A stretch of 62,092 nt of DNA, the filler included. It is 3 parts of 3 records of this genome, joined end to end, with 100 filler letters (N's around TTAATTAATTAA, not from the genome) between each part and the next. Parts side by side here need not be neighbours in the genome. Positions count along the whole stretch, not along the records: positions 15,394 to 42,796 come from SRR20825010_3288; 2 more parts are not named here. One strand, 5' to 3'. Both the position numbers and the translations under genes were made by a program. Under the pieces are notes generated by a model. It had not been told where the DNA came from. It was given only the letters and a program-made list of their open reading frames with translations, and did no database searches. Position 1 is the stretch's first letter, and each line of letters starts with the position of its first letter. Of the stretch, positions 32,427 through 43,827 are shown one piece after another.

Positions 32427-33758
32427 TCAGTCGCCCCGCATTTTCAATCCGAGGTCACCCAGCTTTTCACGAACTTCGTTCAAACTGGTCACACCGAAGT
32501 TCTTGCACTCAAGCATGTCATCGCCGGTCTTGCGAATCAGCTCGCCAATGGAGTTAATTTGCAAACGGGTCATGCACTTGCGAGCACGAACGGACAAGTT
32601 GAGGTCCGCGATGGGACGTTCCAGCAACGCTTGTTCGTCGGGCGACATGTGCGAAGTGTCGACAGGCGGGTCGTTGGATTTCTTCTCGCCAGCGAACTGG
32701 CCGAGCGACAAACCTTTCTGCGACAGCATTTCGCGAATTTCGACCAAGCTGGTTTCGCCAAAGTTCTTGCTCGAGAGCAATTCTTGTTCGCTGTGGCGGG
32801 TCAAATCGCCAATCGTTTCGATGCCCATCTTCTGCAGGCAGTTGCGGCTTCGAACGCTGAGTTCGAAGTTTGCAACGGGCATGTTCAACGTTTGAGCCAA
32901 ACGATCGTTGCGACGTTGGGCTTCTTCGTCGTACAGCATGTTGCCGGTCGCCGAAGCGTCCTTCATGTACAGCTGCGTACGAGGGTGATCGGGGTGGCAA
33001 TCCAAGATTCGCTTGTAGCAAAGCTGAGCCTTGTCGTATTGCCCGTTGTCTTCGTACATCACGCCCAAGTTGATCAGGGCACCGATGCCGGTTGGGAATG
33101 CCTTGGCGGCACGCTCGTACAAACGGAGGGCTTCGTCGTCGTTGCCCAAGCGGTCGTTTTCGAGTGCCAAACCAAACAACGCACCCGCGTGGTTTTCGTC
33201 GGTCGACACGGCTCGTTGGTACAAGTTGATGGCTTCTTCCATCCGTCCACCGATCTGGGCGGCGGTTGCAGCACGCTGGTACATGTAGTCAGCGGTCTGC
33301 TCGGCGGGGCCGAAGATGTCGTCCAAGATCGCCATCGCTTCTTCGATCTTGCCTTGGTAACGCTTGGCTTCCGCGATACCAATCTTGCATTGATCTTCGT
33401 TGTATCCTGATGTCTTGGCTTGCTCGTAGCCTTCGATCGCCCCGTCGAAGTTCGACAGTTCAAACTGGCAACGGGCGTTGTAGAACAACGCCATTGCGCT
33501 GCCGTCGGCCGCGGAGAGAGTCTCCGAGGCGTCTTTGAAACGGCCCAGCATGAATTGGCAAACACCCATTTTGGTTTTGCCGGCGGGAGTCAGGGCGTCG
33601 TCCTGCTCCATTTCGTTGACCGCGTCGCGCAGTTCACCGAAGTGTCCGTAGTTTTCGGTGATCGCCTGCCGAATTTCGGCGACGTCGCTGGGGCCGAACG
33701 AGTTGCTCGCCAGAACCATTTGCTTCAGGTCGAGAACTTCGAGTTCGACTTCGCTCAT
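32427..33758 (-). CDS. TPR-repeat protein with two tandem RNA polymerase alpha-CTD domains
   Basis: TPR-like helices then LSVRSRNCL...[11 protein letters not shown] and LSVRARKCM...[11 protein letters not shown]; no alpha-NTD. Confidence 0.88.
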
Positions 33759-33956
33759 CTTCGTTTTGTCCGGGGCTAACTTCGGCTCGCTCGCACAGCG
33801 ATCCGAAAGGAGGGATAAGGAGTCAGGTGGCGATCTGCTCTGCAAAAATGTGCTCTGCAGGAACAAAAATTTGTCGAGAAAATCGACGCACAAATTGTGA
33901 TGCCAATTTTTCCCGACGCTCGGCGGCAAAAAAGTGGAAAATTTTCTGCTCGTCTA

Positions 33957-34030: not shown

Positions 34031-34602
34031 GACTTTTCCAGAGAATACGTGCGTTTGGGCCAAAACGTCAAGGGCCGTCGGGTCGGCCCAACCGGTCTCC
34101 AGAAGGCCCTGAAGTGATCCCCGCAGGTAAAAATTCCACAAAATTTTGAGACGATGAGAAAAAACTTTTTCGAATTCGCAAAAAAATTCTCTCGAAAATT
34201 TTGTGAGCGGGAGCTGGGATCGCAATTTGTGGTTCTCAAATTGCTCTACCGAAACGGACTCAAATCGGTCTCAGCAGACCACCTGATCGGTGAGCAAACC
34301 CGGACAGACCACAGTTTCGTCGACGTGGCGTGTCCTCGAGCCAGTGCACTTTTTCGCACGATCGAATCGAATTTCGCTCTCCGAAGGTGAAACCAGGCAT
34401 CGACGTGGTGTTAGAATGACGACACATCCCGCGTTGATGCTCTTGGTGACCAATGTGGCCAACTGGATGGCACCGAAACGAGCCAACGCGAACCGAAGCC
34501 GCGATACGCATCAGCGTGGACTGATGCCGGCGATGAATGAACGAATGAAACGGCCCGAGCAAATGGAATCGTTCGCAATGTCGAACGGAAGGTCTTTGAA
34601 CG

Positions 34603-34836
34603 ATGAATGTCACTGAAACGAAACCGTTGGATCAGCCAGCCGAAACGTCCGACGGTCGTCAACCGTCGCCGTCTTCACGGACGCAATCAGCTGAATCGAA
34701 CGCACCCGCGACGTCCTTTCCTGTGAAAGACGATTCAGGCAGCCTGGAATCATTCGCCTTGATGATTGGATTGGACGCCTGCGACGATGCCGCAATCTAT
34801 CTGCATCGTGCTAACACGCATCACGACGGCGAATGA
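34603..34836 (+). CDS. Candidate Pup/UBact-like small modifier protein (77 aa, ends HHDGE)
   Basis: GGAAGG SD-like site; S/P/T/E/D-rich N-terminus, short predicted helix, terminal G-E; 13 nt upstream of the PafA-family gene. Confidence 0.65.
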   Translation: MNVTETKPLDQPAETSDGRQPSPSSRTQSAESNAPATSFPVKDDSGSLESFALMIGLDACDDAAIYLHRANTHHDGE

Positions 34837-34849
34837 ACCCGGCCCCAGA

Positions 34850-36748
34850 ATGACCAGGCCTCGAACGCCCCCACCCCAGACGTCATCGCCCTCAGCCAGG
34901 ATTGCCATTCGCCAGCGTTTGTGCCGACGGTTGATGGGAATGGAAACCGAGTTCGCCACCGTCGTCGAACCTCGCGACGGTTCGTTGAGCTCCGGCGTTA
35001 CAGCTCGCGAGGTCTACGCCGGCTTGCGAGATGCGATTTGTCGCCACTTGCCGGCCGTGGAAGGACTCGATGGCGGCGATCGCCGTTTCTTGGCAAACGG
35101 CTCAGCCATCAACCTCGAGACCCATCTAGCATTTCGCGACGGACCGGGCGGGTTGTTTGAAATGGCGACCCCGGAAGTGTATTGCCCAAGTGATCTGGTC
35201 GCGTGCCAACGAGCGATCGACGAAATCATGCGAGACGCATCGAACGAGGCACGGTGGTCAGACGATCAAAACGTCGGACGACTTCGAGTTCTGAAGAACA
35301 GCTGCGACGCAGCCGGGCATCTCTATGGTTGCCAGGAAAACTACGAGACCGATGTGGCATCCGGCATTGGCTTGCTGGTCTACCGACTCGCGATCTGTTT
35401 CGTTTGGGCGTTGCAGATCGTTTGTGTGTTGATGTCATTTCCAATTGTGGTCGCGATCGTCTTTGCATCGCTGATTCAACACTCGGTTCGGCAAGCTCGA
35501 TCGATCGTTTACCGGCGCGGTGGTCGCTTTGACACACAACTGAACACCACGGACCAAGACAACGATCTGCAGTGGCACGACCATCCCGACACCAGTGATT
35601 CGGAAGAAACGTTTGTGGCACTGCCATCATGGTTTCAATGGCTTTCCATCGCCTGCCTGCGAATGCTGCACCTGCCACTGGTGTTGTCCTTGCGAGTGAT
35701 TGGGACACACATCGCATTCCGAACCCAACGTCGCCATCTGACCGGCCTGCTGGTTTCGCGAGTTGCGATCATGGGAACCGGTCACCTGGATCATGACGGC
35801 CGTTTTTTCTTGTCTGGCAAAGCGTTGGGAATCGACCGGGTCGCCGACATGGGTGGCTTCAACGGCGAGCGACCAATTTTCGTTTACGGTCACTGGTTGT
35901 CAAAGCTGTGTGGTCGTTCTTGGCGATCGATTGCCGAGACTCGTCACTTGCTCAAACGCAGACAACGTTTGCAAATTGGGTTGTCCGATTCCAACCTCAG
36001 CGATCTGGCGCAATGGGCAAAGGTTGGCAGCGTCGCGTTGGTGCTGGACATGATCGAAGCAAAGCAAACGAAGGAGCTGCCACGACTACGTCGTCCAATT
36101 CGAGCTCTGCATGTTTTCAATCGCGATTGGAATCTGCTGCGGCGAATTCCAACCAGCCACGGTGAGATGACATCGTTGGAAATGCAAACGCATTACTACC
36201 GCGCGGCGGCGAAGTTCGTCCGCGAGCAACAACAGCAATCTCGCCAAACGTCCGGTTGGGACGAAGCCGATCGGGCACTGCAACATTGGGCCGAGTCGAT
36301 TCGCTTGGTTCGCCAGTTCCGAAAAGACGGCAACCAAACGGCGCAGGGACTCGGCCGCATCGATTGGCTGGGCAAACGTTGGATGCTGGATCAAGCCGCC
36401 GGTGAGATGCCTGGTGAGAACGCATCTTGGGTGACTCGAAAGAAGATCGACCTTCGATACCACGAGTTGTCCGAAGAGGGTTACTTCGCTCGATTCATTG
36501 CTGACCACCGAGAACATGAACTGGTCGACGAAGATGACATCGAGATGCGTCGTCGCAACGCTCCGGCGGATTCACCGGCCGCCCAAAGAGGCTGGATGAT
36601 TCGTGAATTTGCGGGCGACGTTTCGGTGGCAGGCGGTCCAACCATGCGAACGGATTGGGACCGAGCCTTGGTGGGTCACGAACAAGGCGTTCGCACGGTG
36701 ATCTACGGTCAACGTGAAAGTGAACCGCGGGCCGACAAACGAAGCTAG
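34850..36748 (+). CDS. PafA/Dop-family (Pup-ligase-like, glutamine synthetase fold) protein with hydrophobic insertion
   Basis: RRLMGMETEF, FLANGS, EMATPE, KNSCD..GH.YGCQENY, LSDSNLS, KVGSVALVLDMIE, IDWLGKR, DLRYHEL, TDW match the PafA motif order. Confidence 0.88.
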   Translation: MTRPRTPPPQTSSPSARIAIRQRLCRRLMGMETEFATVVEPRDGSLSSGVTAREVYAGLRDAICRHLPAVEGLDGGDRRFLANGSAINLETHLAFRDGPGGLFEMATPEVYCPSDLVACQRAIDEIMRDASNEARWSDDQNVGRLRVLKNSCDAAGHLYGCQENYETDVASGIGLLVYRLAICFVWALQIVCVLMSFPIVVAIVFASLIQHSVRQARSIVYRRGGRFDTQLNTTDQDNDLQWHDHPDTSDSEETFVALPSWFQWLSIACLRMLHLPLVLSLRVIGTHIAFRTQRRHLTGLLVSRVAIMGTGHLDHDGRFFLSGKALGIDRVADMGGFNGERPIFVYGHWLSKLCGRSWRSIAETRHLLKRRQRLQIGLSDSNLSDLAQWAKVGSVALVLDMIEAKQTKELPRLRRPIRALHVFNRDWNLLRRIPTSHGEMTSLEMQTHYYRAAAKFVREQQQQSRQTSGWDEADRALQHWAESIRLVRQFRKDGNQTAQGLGRIDWLGKRWMLDQAAGEMPGENASWVTRKKIDLRYHELSEEGYFARFIADHREHELVDEDDIEMRRRNAPADSPAAQRGWMIREFAGDVSVAGGPTMRTDWDRALVGHEQGVRTVIYGQRESEPRADKRS

Positions 36749-36920
36749 TCTTGGGAGTTCGGCTGCGGCTCAGGTGACTGCCATCTCCCCCGTGTTGCCA
36801 GCACGCTCTTTCGCGACGACATCGCGTTTACGTTGGTTTTGAGACGACCACACGCTTCCCGACGATCAAGATTCGACGCTAAATCCGCCGCGATAGGCTG
36901 GTTCGTGGATCGTTGGTACC

Positions 36921-39431
36921 ATGGGGACGACGGACACACGTACAAATCGAATTGGGAATCGGATGGGTCGTACTGAATCGTTGGATCCGGGACTTCGTGA
37001 TTTATTGTCACGACTACGCGAACGGGTGCGACGCTACATCGTTTGGGATTCGTTGCTCGCAATCGCGGCGCTGGTGCTGGTCGTGTTCTGGGTGGCACTT
37101 GCGGTCGACTATCTGCCAGTCCGAATCGGCGGCAGCGAAATGCCTCGATCGGCCCGAGCGGTCGTGCTGTTTGTTGTCGCGGTTTTGGTCGTTGTGATTC
37201 TGGCCAAATGGTTGTGGGGCCGACTCAACCGAGAACTGCCCGATGACTCATTGGCGTTGCTGATCGAACGTCACCATCCGAGCCTTGGCGGACGTTTGGT
37301 TACCGCCGTTCAATTGACTCAAGAGAATCGCACCCACGATTCACACAGCCCCGTGTTGTTGCAACACGTTCACCAGGAAGCCGCCGCTGCCGTCGACCAA
37401 GTTGAATTCGGACGTGTCTTTCGGTGGGAACCGATTCGCCGGAAGTTGATGTTGGTCATCCCGTTGTTGCTGGCCGCTTTGGTGATGGCGATCGCCAGCC
37501 CACAAACGTTCGCTCGCGCGGTCGGACGATTGTCTTTGTTTTCTGATTCACCTTGGCCACGAAAAGCTGAGCTTGAAATGATTGGCGTGGAATCGCCGAT
37601 CATCACCGCGGACGACACCGAAGAGGTCGGCACCGAACTTTTGACATTCGAGGACAAGACGCTCCGCTTGGCTCGCGGGAGCAGCACAACGCTTCGCATT
37701 CGTGCGGCAACGGAAGAACTCGGCCACACCGTTCCCGAGATCTGCACGGTTTCTTACGTCGATGATTCCGGCAACCGTGGGCAAAGCAACCTTCGCCGAG
37801 TTGGCCGCATTCAAGATGGTTATCAATCGTTTGTGCTCGACGGGCCACCGCTCGCTTCGTTGGCCGAGTCCGTGACGATGACCATTCGAGGCTTGGACGA
37901 TCGCTTGCTCGACTACCGTATCGAAGCGGTTGATCCGCCCGCGATCGCGGACATGGAATTGGCAATTCGTTATCCCGAGTACTTGCGCATCTTTAACGCC
38001 GAAGATGCATCGCCCGACGCCGCTGATCAAATCCTGAAGTACCAAGCCGGCTTCCGAATTCGCGAGGGCAGCTCGCTCACGCTTCGTGGAACCAGCAGTA
38101 AACCACTCGGTGCCGTCGATGTCGCAACGACTTCCGAAGGTGCAAGCGATGGGTCCACCGAACGTGCGGAACCTGTCGTTAAAATCGCTAACGACCGCAT
38201 GTCGTTTGAATGGTCGGTGTCCGATTTGCGAGCCCCCACCTCCGTCCGATTGGTCCCCAAAGACGAAACCGGCATTTCCGCTCAGGCATCGTATCGATAC
38301 TTCATTGGCGTCGTCCGAGACCAAGTTCCCGAGACATCGATGACGATGAAGGGCATCGGCTCGTCCATCACTCCCATCGCGATGTTGCCAATTCAAGCGA
38401 CTGCAACGGATGACTACGGCGTTGAATCGTTGAGCCTGACGATGGCGGTCCGAGCATCCGAGGAAAATGTAGACGGGGCTAGCGATGGCGAAGCGGCGGC
38501 CAATGCGGAACCACAGCAACACACCGTGTCACCCGAATTGGATCGTGACGGCAACGCCGCTTGGACGTTTGACTTGCGAGACCTTTCTGACGACGGCACC
38601 GTGAATGGGTTGGCTCCCGGAGCGAGCGTGCAAATTTTCACGACGGCCAAGGACCGGTTCGACTTGGGTGAACCACACTCGATTCGCGGCGAGGTGGTTC
38701 GTTTGCAAGTCGTGACACCAGAGACACTGCTCGCGACACTTGAGCGACGCGAACTGGAATTCCGTTCGCGGTTGGAACAAGCGATCGATGAAACCCAACG
38801 TTTGCGTCAGAGTTTGGCCGCGGTGCAAAACGACGCGTTGGATGTTTTGCAAACTCCGGATGAGGGTGAATCTGCCGAGGAATCCGCCTCGACTGGTGAC
38901 GACGAATCCGACGGCGAATCCGCTGACGACGACGGCGAGGAAGACGTCCGGGCGAGACAAAGAGTCCAACTGCGAATCCGCCAATCGGAATTGCAGGCAA
39001 CCAAATCCACGGAAGAGTTGGCGGGGATTGTCGTCGGACTCGAAGACCTGCTTCTCGAAATGGTGCAGAACCGCGTCGATTCGGTTGACCGCCGCGAACG
39101 ATTGGAAAACGGCGTCCGTAACCCATTGTCGGCGGTGGTGACGGAACCCTTGCCACGCCTGCAGCGTCAAATCACTTCGATGGAACGGGTTTTGATGGCG
39201 GAAGATTCCGCCGAATCGTCTGGGGACAAGATGACGGAAGCAGCGACCGCGGCAATCGCAACAACCGACGAAGTCCTCCTGTCGCTCAACGCCGTCTTGG
39301 AAAAGATGCTTGACCTAGAAAGTTTCAACGAAATTCTGGATTTGGTCCGAGGGTTGATCAGCGATCAGGAAGAATTGATCGAGGAAACCGAAGAAACTCG
39401 AAACCAGCAGGTCCAAGATCTGTTCAAGTAG
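36921..39431 (+). CDS. Large membrane protein, DUF4175-like Planctomycete family
   Basis: Three N-terminal TMs, LALLIERHHPSLGGRLVTAVQL, ATATDDYGV, C-terminal coiled coil. Confidence 0.75.
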   Translation: MGTTDTRTNRIGNRMGRTESLDPGLRDLLSRLRERVRRYIVWDSLLAIAALVLVVFWVALAVDYLPVRIGGSEMPRSARAVVLFVVAVLVVVILAKWLWGRLNRELPDDSLALLIERHHPSLGGRLVTAVQLTQENRTHDSHSPVLLQHVHQEAAAAVDQVEFGRVFRWEPIRRKLMLVIPLLLAALVMAIASPQTFARAVGRLSLFSDSPWPRKAELEMIGVESPIITADDTEEVGTELLTFEDKTLRLARGSSTTLRIRAATEELGHTVPEICTVSYVDDSGNRGQSNLRRVGRIQDGYQSFVLDGPPLASLAESVTMTIRGLDDRLLDYRIEAVDPPAIADMELAIRYPEYLRIFNAEDASPDAADQILKYQAGFRIREGSSLTLRGTSSKPLGAVDVATTSEGASDGSTERAEPVVKIANDRMSFEWSVSDLRAPTSVRLVPKDETGISAQASYRYFIGVVRDQVPETSMTMKGIGSSITPIAMLPIQATATDDYGVESLSLTMAVRASEENVDGASDGEAAANAEPQQHTVSPELDRDGNAAWTFDLRDLSDDGTVNGLAPGASVQIFTTAKDRFDLGEPHSIRGEVVRLQVVTPETLLATLERRELEFRSRLEQAIDETQRLRQSLAAVQNDALDVLQTPDEGESAEESASTGDDESDGESADDDGEEDVRARQRVQLRIRQSELQATKSTEELAGIVVGLEDLLLEMVQNRVDSVDRRERLENGVRNPLSAVVTEPLPRLQRQITSMERVLMAEDSAESSGDKMTEAATAAIATTDEVLLSLNAVLEKMLDLESFNEILDLVRGLISDQEELIEETEETRNQQVQDLFK

Positions 39432-39483
39432 AAAGGAACGCGGGTGATCGACCGGGCTCGTTTTCTGGACGCATCCTCGCGAC

Positions 39484-41439
39484 GTGAACCGCGGATGGAA
39501 AGCCATTTCAATGAACGCCGATTGCATGAACCAAGCTGACCGCCCCCGCCCAGTCCTTTGGCCGATGACAAACGCACGCACTCGTTTCGCTTACTCACTC
39601 GCGTTGGCTTCGGCCGTGTTGGTGATCTCGGTCGCCCCGAAATCGTCCTTTGCTCAATCATCGACGGACGACGAAGTCACAACGCTCGCGTCACGCCAAT
39701 CCAGCGTTGCAACCCGCTACGAGCGTCTCGAAGAACTGTTGCTTCGATTGGCTGACATGGAAGCCAGCGAAAACCCGGAACGCTCAGCCCTGCTGCGACG
39801 CGTCGCCAAACAATCTCGCGAACGATTCGTGCTGGAAAAACTTCGCGGTGCCGGCAAGATGATCGGCGACGGCCAACTATCCAAAGCGATGACGGATCAG
39901 AAGTCGGCGACAGAAGAACTGCAGTCGATTCTGAAACTGTTGATGAGCGAAGACCGAAGCTCCCGAATTCGCGATGAGAAGAAACGCATTTCGGAACTCA
40001 TCAAACAACTTCGATTGACCGAGCGCAACGAACGTAGCGTCCGGGCTCGAACCGAAAACGGTGTCGAGATGAGCGAAGTCGAAAAGGAGCAGAAGGCGAT
40101 CGCCGAACGGGCTGAAGAACTTCGCAAAGAACTCGAGGAAGAATCCGACGACGCCAGCGGCGAACCATCCGAAAGCGAATCGTCAAAGAGCGAAGCACAA
40201 GAATCTAAGAACGAAAATTCCGAAAACCAATCTGGCAACAAAGGCGAGATGGAAGCGGGACGAGAGTCCGGCGAACAGAAACCTGGCGAAGAAAGCAGCG
40301 AGCAAAACGAGAACGGACAGCCGCAGGAAAACGAGCAGCCCAAAGAAAGCGGACAACAAGACGAGAACTCGCAACAGCAACCTGAAGGCGATGAGCCCAA
40401 AGAAGCTTCCGAAAATGGCGAGCAACCAGATGGTGAACCCGCCGAAGAAAAAACGGGCGAAGAGCAAGAAGAGCAAGGTGAACAGTCACCTGCCGGGGAA
40501 CAGCAATCCGAAGAAGGGCAGCAACAATCGGGCGAACAAAAGTCTGGAGAGAAGCAGTCCGGCGAACAGCAGTCGTCTTCGCAACAGCAACCACCCAAAC
40601 CGCAATCGCCTCAAGAACAGGCGAAGGAGCAGCTCGAACGCGCGATCGAGCGGATGAAAGAAGCTCAGGACAAACTCGCTCAGAACGAACGAAAAGAAGC
40701 CACCGAACAACAACGACAAGCCGAAGAAGAGTTGCGTCGCGCGATCGATCGATTGGAAAAGATCCTTCGACAACTTCGCGAAGAAGAGATGGAACGTGAA
40801 CTGGCAAAACTCGAGGCACGTTTGCGCAAAATGGCGGCGATGCAATCAGCCGTGTTGGACCAAACCGTTCAACTGGCAAAAACACCCGAAGTCCAACGCA
40901 ATCGTGCCACGGATTTGAAGGCCGGTGATTTGGCGTTCGAAGAGCAGAAGATCACGTTGGAAGCGGACCGCGCGATGCTGCTTTTGCGAGAAGAAGGCTC
41001 AAGTGTCGCGTTCCCAGAAGTCGTCTCACAATTGCGTGACGACACCGTTCGGGTCTCGACCCGGTTGGGACAAAGCAAAATCGACTTGGTCACTCAGGGT
41101 CTGCAATCCGACATCTTGGCTGGGTTGGAGGAAATGATTGCGGCATTAGCCAAAGCACAACGTGACCTGGAAAAAAAGAAACAACAGGAACAACAGGGCG
41201 ACGGTGGGGGGCAACCGTCGGGTTCTGGAGAAGAACCCCTTGTCCAGAAATTGGCCGAGTTAAAATTGATCCGCACGATGCAAACTCGCATCCAGGGCTC
41301 CACGGATCGCTATGCTAGTTTGATGGATGGCAAGGAGACTTCTGCCGAAGACGTCTTGCCATTGCTCCGCGATTTGTCGCAAAGACAAGATCGGCTTTAT
41401 CAAATCACCCGTGATTTGGTGACCGAGCGGAACAAATAG
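39484..41439 (+). CDS. Secreted coiled-coil protein with E/Q/S-rich low-complexity linker (start probably 39511-39565)
   Basis: Signal-like segment ending SSFA; heptad helices flanking GEQ[QK]S repeats. Confidence 0.75.
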   Translation: MNRGWKAISMNADCMNQADRPRPVLWPMTNARTRFAYSLALASAVLVISVAPKSSFAQSSTDDEVTTLASRQSSVATRYERLEELLLRLADMEASENPERSALLRRVAKQSRERFVLEKLRGAGKMIGDGQLSKAMTDQKSATEELQSILKLLMSEDRSSRIRDEKKRISELIKQLRLTERNERSVRARTENGVEMSEVEKEQKAIAERAEELRKELEEESDDASGEPSESESSKSEAQESKNENSENQSGNKGEMEAGRESGEQKPGEESSEQNENGQPQENEQPKESGQQDENSQQQPEGDEPKEASENGEQPDGEPAEEKTGEEQEEQGEQSPAGEQQSEEGQQQSGEQKSGEKQSGEQQSSSQQQPPKPQSPQEQAKEQLERAIERMKEAQDKLAQNERKEATEQQRQAEEELRRAIDRLEKILRQLREEEMERELAKLEARLRKMAAMQSAVLDQTVQLAKTPEVQRNRATDLKAGDLAFEEQKITLEADRAMLLLREEGSSVAFPEVVSQLRDDTVRVSTRLGQSKIDLVTQGLQSDILAGLEEMIAALAKAQRDLEKKKQQEQQGDGGGQPSGSGEEPLVQKLAELKLIRTMQTRIQGSTDRYASLMDGKETSAEDVLPLLRDLSQRQDRLYQITRDLVTERNK

Positions 41440-41458
41440 GGAACCACCTCCCGCGACC

Positions 41459-42694
41459 TTGAATGGATCATTGCTGATGAGAATTCGTTTCGCTGCTGCG
41501 CTCTGGACTCTGTTGCCGGCCTCCTTTTTGGCGTCTCCCGCCATGGCCGAAATCGGACCCGCGTCGGAACTCGCCATTGTCTCGGCCGCTTCGAAAGCAT
41601 CGTTCTCATCCAATTCGGCTTCTCGACCATCACGTTCTGATCTGGTCCAAATCATTCCGGAATCAGAAGCCCAACCTTTGGAATCCGGCCAAGCAAATGA
41701 CGGCTTGAAAAGCAACGCGGATTGGCCGCTGCGAGACTCGGATGAAATGGCAGAACAGCTTCGCGCGGCACTGGATGCGTTGGGCGTCGCTCCCGACTTG
41801 ATGGACCAAGCAACCGAAAGCTTTCTGATCGGAGTCCAACGTGACGACATGGAACCGCTCAACGCATGGGTTGATGCCGCGTCGGCACAGTTCGACGTGT
41901 TGTCCGAACTGATGCGTCGCCTGAATGGCGATTTGTTGTCCACTGCTCGCGGCATGGATCCCAACGGTCCGGATTACGCGATCGTTGAATCAATGCCAAA
42001 CGAATTGCGAGCCGCCCTTCGAACTTGGATCGGCCGCGAATTGGTGCGTGCTCGTTACTACGACGAAGCCCTGCCGATTTTCGCCGAAGTCGATCCGATG
42101 GTGTGCCCCGATCCCGCGACGCTGTTGTTCTATCGCGGTGCGTGCTACCACGCGCAGTTGAAGATCAAAGATTCACTGTCGGATTTGCGTCGCCTGTTGC
42201 AACGCAAAGACGAGATTCCTTCACGTTACGCTCGTACCGCTGAGATGATGGTCGCGGATATCAAACCACTCAAGAAAGATTCGCTGGACGAGATCTCTCG
42301 ATTGATGAGCGATGTCACCCGTCGCTTGGATTTGGGACGTGCTGACGAAGCGACCAAGGATCGCGAGCAAGAGGTGATCGACAAGCTCACCAAGCTGATC
42401 GACAAGATCGAAGAAGAGCAGCAGAAACAGCAACAACAGCAGCAGCAACAACAAAGCGCCAGTGGAAACGGTGGCCAAAGCGATGGGCAAGCGTCACCCA
42501 TGGATGACAGCCGAATCGCAGGTGCCAATGGCCAAGGCGATGCGGATCGCAAAAAGATGGACGACCAAAACGGCTGGGGCAATCTGCCTCCCGCGGAACG
42601 TCAGGAATCACTGCAACAGATCAGCCGCGATTTGCCGACGCATTACCGGGAAGCCATCGAAGCTTACTTCCGCAAACTTGCCACGCAAAAGTAA
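41459..42694 (+). CDS. Secreted TPR-like protein with poly-Q linker
   Basis: Signal peptide ...SPAMA; TPR-like LLFYRGACYHA; Q-run; WGNLPPAER...YREAIEAYFRKLA tail. Confidence 0.75.
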   Translation: MNGSLLMRIRFAAALWTLLPASFLASPAMAEIGPASELAIVSAASKASFSSNSASRPSRSDLVQIIPESEAQPLESGQANDGLKSNADWPLRDSDEMAEQLRAALDALGVAPDLMDQATESFLIGVQRDDMEPLNAWVDAASAQFDVLSELMRRLNGDLLSTARGMDPNGPDYAIVESMPNELRAALRTWIGRELVRARYYDEALPIFAEVDPMVCPDPATLLFYRGACYHAQLKIKDSLSDLRRLLQRKDEIPSRYARTAEMMVADIKPLKKDSLDEISRLMSDVTRRLDLGRADEATKDREQEVIDKLTKLIDKIEEEQQKQQQQQQQQQSASGNGGQSDGQASPMDDSRIAGANGQGDADRKKMDDQNGWGNLPPAERQESLQQISRDLPTHYREAIEAYFRKLATQK

Positions 42695-42796: not shown

Positions 42797-42896
42797 NNNN
42801 NNNNNNNNNNNNNNNNNNNNNNNNNNNNNNNNNNNNNNNNTTAATTAATTAANNNNNNNNNNNNNNNNNNNNNNNNNNNNNNNNNNNNNNNNNNNN
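42797..42896. other. Artificial contig linker
   Basis: 44 N + TTAATTAATTAA + 44 N. Confidence 0.98.
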
Positions 42897-43827
42897 CGCC
42901 CAGGCTTTTAAGCAGAACACGGGGCTCCATACCAGCACCCTGTAAAACTTCAGGGTGCGTCAGCAGAACCGGCATCAGCACATCCCTCGCGGCCTTCGCG
43001 GATTCTTTGTAAGCAATGCCCACCGGGATATTCAGGCGGGTGACCCCTTCTGCGCTGTAATTGATGATGTCGGATGACGCCACACTGTCGTTTGGAATCA
43101 TCGCGAAGATATTATCCCGGGTGCGCAGCCAGGTGGTGCGCAAGGCAATCTTGACCACTTTGCCGTCTTGCCCGTTGATGGTCACCCAATCACCAATGCG
43201 GAACGGCCTCTCAATCAGCAGGGTGATACCGGCAATGAAATTGGAGAGGGTTGATTGCGCCGCAAAGCCAACGGCGATACCGACGATCCCCAACCCCGCC
43301 ACAATCGAAACCACATCGAAACCGAACTGGGCGAGCACCGTCACCACAGCCAGCGCTGAGACGACCACCGAAAACAGGTTCTCGACCAGCTGGCGGATCG
43401 AAGGATCCATTTTGTAGCGCACCATGCTGTCCTTGATCAGGCGCGCCAGAACCAGCCAGGCCACATAGAAACCGAGGGCCATAAAGCCCGCCCTCGCCAT
43501 CGCCTTGAGAACCTCAGGAGACGTCCCGAACTGTGCAAGAATGAAGACCAGCGCCCCTAACCCGGCCAGATAGCGCAGAGTGCTTCGCACCTGGAGGAAC
43601 AGAGGTGTTTTGGCCCGCTGCTTACCCAAGACCAGCCGGATCGCACCGGTCACCACCAGATAGATCCCGAAAAACACCCCAAGATAGATTACAGAGACCA
43701 ACAACTGGCCAAGCATCTGTACGACAAGCGCGCCCCAGTCCAAATCCTCACCTGATACGGCCAGGAAGGCATCGCCAATATTTCGCTGGAGCTGTTCAAC
43801 CAGCTCGGTACCAAAGGATTCAGCCAT
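42897..43827 (-). CDS. MscS-family mechanosensitive channel, 3'-truncated by contig start
   Basis: GIAVGFAAQSTLSNFIAG, RPFRIGDWV, IPND..ASSDIINYS. Confidence 0.92.

Follow-up and report, generated by a model that had tools for sequence, protein, structure and literature searches.

What would a Pup ligase do with a long hydrophobic stretch set inside its catalytic fold? The question is raised by a gene in the window, the whole 62,092-nucleotide stretch of DNA that was analysed. An original prediction, made from the letters of the window, had proposed that this ligase is held at a membrane, that membrane proteins may be its substrates, and that sorting or turnover by a membrane protease may follow in place of proteasomal degradation. 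The features of the locus are collected in Table 1.

Table 1. Features of the tag-ligase locus, in positions of the window
Feature	Position	Strand	Basis
Pup/UBact-like tag gene, 77 residues, ending Gly-Glu	34603..34836	+	translation, upstream ORFs in relatives, UniRef UBact names
PafA/Dop-family ligase gene, 632 residues	34850..36748	+	Pfam PF03136 match and fold match; ATG start
Strand-1 GxExE motif (E32, E34)	34937..34951	+	each Glu in 119/121 rows; defining motif in PMC2588565
E90, replacing the catalytic Asp of PafA/Dop	35117..35119	+	121/121 rows; aligns with PafA D64
GCQENY motif, 5' flank of insert	35327-35344	+
Insert after core strand 4, residues 166-296	35345..35737	+	translation, alignments to solved structures, homologue spacers
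Predicted helix A, residues 172-224, likely membrane-embedded	35363..35521	+	AlphaFold secondary structure; charge/hydropathy profile
Charge-free run in helix A, residues 180-213 (34 residues)	35387-35488	+	charge profile
Variable, largely disordered loop	35522..35584	+	alignment, AlphaFold
Predicted return helix B, residues 260-288, hydrophobic with a narrow basic face, antiparallel to A	35627..35713	+	AlphaFold, profile, covariation
LTGLLVSR motif, 3' flank of insert	35738-35761	+
Remodelled extended loop, residues 330-368, with two clade-specific helices	35837..35953	+	AlphaFold, alignment, covariation
QRLQIGLSD catalytic-core motif (R373, Q375, D380)	35963..35989	+	alignments
KKIDLRYH helix, centre of predicted tag-binding surface	36440..36463	+	(nearly) invariant; predicted interface

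The ligase belongs to the Pup-ligase family by profile as well as by predicted fold. The Pfam family PF03136 (Pup_ligase) spans residues 27-604 with an E-value of 4.8e-81 and 273 bits against a cut-off of 25. The closest of the 227 matches in a homologue search, at 93% identity, bears the name of Rhodopirellula europaea. One public contig, possibly the source of the window itself, is identical to it over 34400-36900. PF03136 matches a single gene in the nearest genome, which is 99% complete. The superposition on PafA suggested with the original prediction bears out a PafA/Dop fold. The AlphaFold model (mean pLDDT 88.8) matches Dop 4b0r with a Z of 40.6 (rmsd 2.3, 416 aligned; Foldseek E 2.7e-22) and PafA 4bjr with a Z of 34.9 (rmsd 3.1, 432 aligned), and the next-best fold family has a Z of 19. 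Profile matches to the PDB are also slightly nearer to Dop (E 2.4e-38) than to PafA (4.8e-28). The scores against the two NCBIfam equivalogs fall below their cut-offs, 124.5 vs 551.3 bits for PafA (TIGR03686) and 110.8 vs 492.3 bits for Dop (TIGR03688). Both the slight nearness to Dop and the far higher cut-offs count against reading the enzyme as a ligase.

The spacer between the GCQENY and LTGLLVSR motifs is 131 residues in the ligase vs 14 in the alignments to solved Dop (4b0r) and PafA (4b0t), a net insertion of about 117 residues. The predicted length of about 130 residues holds for the spacer but not for the net insertion. The two hydrophobic segments and the basic-then-acidic loop that had been described are all present in the translation. 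Conservation was followed in two alignments, one of 121 rows (the query and the best 120 of the 227 matches) and a broader one of 118 rows (110 insert-bearing and eight soluble planctomycete homologues). The spacer is 100-137 residues in 121/121 rows of the first and 81-139 in 110/118 rows of the second; the eight soluble homologues have 12-20, so the motifs are close together in soluble enzymes, as had been said of PafA. Loss of the insert from close orthologues, which would have spoken against the prediction, is not seen in any of the 121 rows. Since the spacer is conserved in all of these rows and the public contig is identical over the region, the insert is neither a chance feature nor an assembly error.

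A quick tree search on 57 rows of the broader alignment with the insert excised, rooted at the midpoint only, placed the 49 insert-bearing rows on the same side of a branch with an SH-aLRT of 92. Named distant members come from Deltaproteobacteria, Vulcanimicrobiota and Uabimicrobium. Deeper-branching insert-bearing ligases (loci L007-L020, L029) have a second, non-hydrophobic insertion of about 70 residues near the C-terminal helices. Other planctomycetes (L002-L005, L021-L023, L025-L028, L030) encode soluble PafA/Dop-like enzymes as two paralogues in one operon; between the two genes lies a small Gly-Glu or Gly-Gln tag, and the catalytic Asp is kept.

The insert and the idea of membrane anchoring were already published, in silico, in 2008. 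Iyer, Burroughs and Aravind gave a computational account of transmembrane-insertion ligases from Rhodopirellula baltica and Plesiocystis pacifica (PMC2588565), and the present insert lies at the same site, directly after core strand 4. The accessible portion of that account places four transmembrane segments there, finds no linkage to proteasome genes, and proposes likely anchoring of the ligases at the cytoplasmic face, with membrane proteins as possible targets (PMC2588565). As far as this portion goes, the present ligase shares with them the genus, the insertion site, an adjacent Pup-like gene, the absence of proteasome linkage and the proposed anchoring. It differs in having two long helices by models and covariation rather than four transmembrane segments, and the membrane-protein gene linked in 2008 is not conserved over the family loci examined here. 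Searches of openly available papers yielded no experimental study of membrane-insert Pup ligases. A term search of a 2025 review (PMC12288473) returned no match, and nothing relevant was found in the accessible part of PMC7203096. The parts available of two further papers merely cite the 2008 paper (PMC2837639) or mention UBact once (PMC11354881).

Just three Kyte-Doolittle windows of at least 1.6 occur in the whole ligase (residues 169-187, 191-209 and 267-285). All of them lie in the insert, within the two predicted long helices, as compared with the four segments counted in 2008. Four windows occur in two of the 230 homologues scored; another 39 of the 269 were dropped, as the flanking motifs could not be located. 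On one side of the charge-free run of helix A stands R179 (99% of close rows), on the other are basic residues at 211-214; the run has a median of 38 residues and reaches at least 30 in 85 of the 110 diverse insert-bearing rows. Residues 191-208 are hydrophobic on every face (mean 0.81, moment 0.12) and interchange freely among hydrophobic residues, like lipid-facing helices. In 95-100% of close rows the helix B segment carries R271, H274, P276 and R282; only 41 of the 110 diverse rows have an uncharged run of at least 19 residues there. The polar loop is lineage-specific, 36 residues in the ligase vs a median of 9 among the 121 rows, and its pLDDT falls below 50 at residues 232-247.

Two AlphaFold models, one for the ligase and one for a distant member (pLDDT 94.2), agree on a continuous helix of about 50 residues and a return helix of about 30. 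Covariation over 452 rows, about 260 effective sequences, gave an antiparallel ladder (174-291, 177-288, 181-284, 184-280), and the sum-465 diagonal has the top mean score in a pair list that includes many noise-like pairs. A hairpin turn within helix A at P198 was considered and rejected; the top pairs within A are 7, 8, 11 or 15 residues apart and the helix is continuous in both models. Because the enzyme continues on both sides of the insert, the number of spans must be even. The preferred shapes are a pair of tilted spans and a hairpin lying in the membrane plane; four transmembrane spans look unlikely. Anchoring of the ligase through the insert, as originally predicted, is likely, being well supported by hydrophobicity and conservation. 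The second segment, with R271, H274, P276 and R282, does not form a clean span. The hairpin could otherwise be an arm that binds a protein or mediates oligomerisation and does not anchor in lipid, on an enzyme that is soluble or held by a partner. The conserved charges on helix B would suit such an arm, as would covariation of the hairpin base with catalytic domain residues 330-346 and 367-368 (183-368, 290-367, 285-332 and 285-346, from the list that contains noise). That role is nevertheless very improbable, given that residues 191-208 are hydrophobic all round and vary freely among hydrophobic residues and that no conserved partner gene was found.

The ligase gene follows the stop codon of the tag gene by 13 bases. 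The tag gene had escaped the original prediction. The tag has a variable N-terminal part and 30 conserved C-terminal residues. Small, helical in its C-terminal part, closed by G[EQ] and encoded beside a ligase gene, it fits the description of Pup and UBact, and UBact is the UniRef name of two members of its own cluster. UBact is reportedly a Pup-like modifier of Gram-negative bacteria, said to have been described by Lehmann et al. in 2017, with proteasome-linked operons and soluble enzymes. The present tag resembles it as a small Gly-Glu-ending protein beside a PafA-family gene; it differs in being paired with a single, likely membrane-bound ligase and in having no match among Pfam and NCBIfam profiles. 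Searched with the Pfam Pup profile (PF05639) up to an E-value of 1, the nearest genome gave no match, and since the tag is present though unmatched, this profile is too insensitive.

The tag accompanies the ligase over much of the family. Seven of 80 ligase loci had no upstream DNA, and a GE-ending ORF lies directly upstream in 19 of the 73 usable loci, one chance match having been discarded. A profile of these 19 ORFs was run together with a ligase profile over 151 genomes of the family. A near-full ligase is present in 78 of them, leaving out one genome with a weak partial match only. In 57 of the 78 the tag lies immediately upstream, in keeping with the adjacent Pup-like gene ending in G[EQ] of the 2008 description; in 15 it lies elsewhere and in six it was not found. 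These six count against the ligase reading. Two of the 15 displaced tags are weak, one confirmed as a real ORF and one likely a chance match. At E ≤0.005 tag and ligase occur together in 67 of the 151 genomes, the tag only in one, the ligase only in 11 and neither in 72; these counts include genomes that supplied the tag profile, and related genomes that are not independent of one another. Of 30 retrieved tag loci, 29 show a GE-ending ORF.

Several arrangements depart from the pair seen here. One branch of the family (L209-L221; G357, G315, G402, G423 and others) has the tag away from the ligase, by up to megabases; these displaced tags (L209-L221) keep the Gly-Glu end and have no neighbour gene in common. 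The genomes G310:C1 and G400:C1 each hold two separate ligase and tag pairs. The planctomycete family f18 has tag ORFs of about 100 residues (L222 6200-6492, L223 5388-5726 and a minus-strand ORF of L224) with a hydrophobic segment of their own before the Gly-Glu end, their start codons being uncertain in GC-rich genomes; by their sequence these tags may be membrane-bound too. As to expression, the start of the tag gene (34568-34749) is covered by a depth-2 contig from a run guessed to be RNA, and the loose end that opens this contig is presumably a cDNA library adapter. Short pieces were all that came from three presumed RNA runs, and one of these pieces lies over the tag gene. The contig is a weak hint that the tag gene is transcribed and gives neither level nor strand; a promoter and terminator scan found nothing beyond chance.

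A complex of the ligase with the last 51 residues of the tag was predicted with a score of 0.77, vs 0.01 for the best of three controls. At least 74% of contacts recur between runs, with a partner pLDDT of 60 or more. For comparison, 51 of 78 solved complexes and two of 108 mismatched pairs attain the score mark used. The predicted interface is centred on ligase residues 525-552. Because like complexes have been solved (4bjr, 7oxy), the pass may reflect structures that the predictor had already learned. The prediction is one of likeness to Pup-enzyme complexes, not proof of binding.

No two-subunit proteasome was matched in the genomes searched. The proteasome subunit family PF00227 has no match in the nearest genome; among the 78 ligase genomes it has one match in 47, none in 31 and two in none. 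Nor were Dop, ARC or a two-subunit proteasome found in the nearest genome. The PF00227 matches were rejected as proteasome. All four strong ones tested are HslV, just one of the four coming from a ligase genome, and two matches never occur in the same one of the 78. Four weak matches have no NCBIfam name. An ARC-like ATPase occurs in five of the 151 genomes, none above its cut-off and three beside a separate, weaker PafA-family match. One of the weak PF00227 matches is a lone 240-residue proteasome-fold gene without an NCBIfam name (L254 1884-2606, minus strand), found singly in some family genomes and reminiscent of Anbu. The non-proteasomal outcome that had been foreseen is thus supported by the absence of PF00227 from the nearest genome and of two matches from all 78 ligase genomes. 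The conserved neighbours likewise show no proteasome linkage.

The survey of neighbourhoods, which took in Planctomycetota members only, found no conserved third gene beside the ligase over 81 loci or beside displaced tags over 41. At the loci examined, neither ligase nor tag has a protease, lipid or partner gene among its conserved neighbours, and the gene context gave no clue to the substrate. Downstream of the ligase the window has three co-oriented genes (36921-42694) of 836, 651 and 411 residues without a Pfam or NCBIfam match, which trail the ligase in a few close relatives only. The 836-residue membrane gene, with hydrophobic N-terminal segments, was rejected as a component of the system; it adjoins the ligase in four loci only. 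The gene divergent from the tag-ligase pair (32427-33929, minus strand) encodes a protein that combines TPR repeats and two C-terminal domains of RNA polymerase alpha, and farther on a run of N at about 43775-43820 breaks an ORF that starts at 42841.

An anchored ligase could still mark proteins for degradation, with a general protease (FtsH, Clp) as the acceptor in a quality control of membrane proteins. Pup is a degradation tag in actinobacteria (PMC2588565), two full-length protease domains of the FtsH type occur in the nearest genome, and the variable N-terminal part of the tag could be an entry handle. However, 10 of the 14 control genomes match FtsH as well, so that its presence is little informative; no protease is found among the conserved neighbours of ligase or tag, and about half of the family (72/151) has no ligase match. 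Degradation is therefore an unlikely purpose, with some chance left to it.

The active site was compared with the signature given for the family in the accessible part of the 2008 paper, namely GhExE, acidic residues on strands 2-3, [HQ]x[NH], [QH]x4D and two arginines (PMC2588565). The ligase has E32, E34, E90, E104, Q162/N164, Q375/D380 and R373 at these places, with Lys324 for the loop arginine. Among these, E32, E34, E104, R373 and D380 are conserved core residues and the metal ligands are conserved. The catalytic Asp is changed; the E90 position is Glu in 108 of the 110 insert-bearing rows and Asp in all eight soluble rows. PafA activity requires its catalytic Asp (PMC5358908, from the portion available). 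This change and Ala86 in the column of PafA R60 and Dop R90 count against the ligase reading.

The residues that separate PafA from Dop have also been altered. All Dop have a Dop loop, which is missing from PafA, according to the part of PMC8599861 available; it comprises 40-65 residues before strand 2. The distance from E32 to E90 is 58 residues in the ligase vs 48 in PafA and 86 in Dop, which leaves no Dop loop. R227 is essential in Dop, and its PafA equivalent R207 recognises substrates together with R137 and R218 (PMC10465538, accessible part). In the ligase the R137 position is the start of the insert, R218 is Q372, and R207, like Dop R227, is G347, a match of motif register rather than of exact column. 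The loop carrying R207 or R227 is replaced by the remodelled extended loop of residues 330-368; in PafA the extended loop touches the substrate (bioRxiv 10.64898/2026.04.10.717840, in the portion available). The ligase therefore has neither the catalytic Asp57/Asp64 and site-2 arginines of the PafA equivalog nor the Dop loop and R227 of the Dop equivalog. With PafA (4bjr, 4b0t) it shares the fold, GxExE and the other metal ligands, the absence of a Dop loop and the adjacent tag; unlike PafA it has the insert, Glu for Asp64 and the three arginines replaced. With Dop (4b0r, 7oxy) it shares the fold, as its best structural match, but Dop H241 is Gln. The residue pattern points to a ligase with a changed choice of target.

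Might the enzyme be a Dop-like hydrolase that removes tags, or be inactive? Its slightly better matches to Dop and its altered catalytic residues would fit, but the nearest genome has no second family member to form conjugates, the Dop loop and the R227 equivalent are both absent, a Glu-ending tag leaves nothing to deamidate, and the metal ligands are conserved; such an enzyme is highly improbable here. A ligase reading leaves room for other acceptors: at the membrane the tag glutamate might be linked to an amine that is not part of a protein, an amino-lipid head group for instance, or else to a small amine. Replacement of all three PafA arginines and the clade-wide Glu would be in keeping with this, and related enzymes of the fold ligate small amines (PMC2588565). 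Against it, the tag and the predicted binding surface resemble Pup and its groove, the characterised members in the cited papers act on protein lysines, and no lipid gene is among the conserved neighbours, so that an amine of this kind is quite improbable. The planctomycetes are a phylum known for membrane remodelling. In a bolder form of the same idea, pupylation chemistry would have been turned into lipidation, the last tag glutamate passing to an amino-lipid head group as a bacterial counterpart of Atg8 lipidation; the chance of this is slim.

The reading we consider probable is a membrane-anchored PafA-type ligase that tags membrane-proximal proteins with the upstream 77-residue tag and without a proteasome. 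By way of the predicted two-helix hairpin the ligase would sit against the inside of the cell membrane and there join the tag to nearby proteins, likely with no proteasome involved. By analogy with PafA, ATP would be spent in phosphorylating the last glutamate of the tag, which a lysine of the target would then attack. With Glu at its end as encoded, the tag calls for no deamidase. The choice of targets, made in PafA by the arginine patch, may here fall to the anchor and the remodelled extended loop, and the tagging would be regulatory.

What is added to the 2008 account is modest. First, a two-helix model takes the place of four spans. Second, the Asp-to-Glu change is clade-wide and goes with a loss of the substrate-recognition arginines. 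Third, the ligase is present in about half of the sampled family, and the tag persists after leaving the ligase. If the reading is true, planctomycetes would own a minimal two-gene system for tagging at the membrane that works without a proteasome, an analogue of the membrane-bound ubiquitin ligases.
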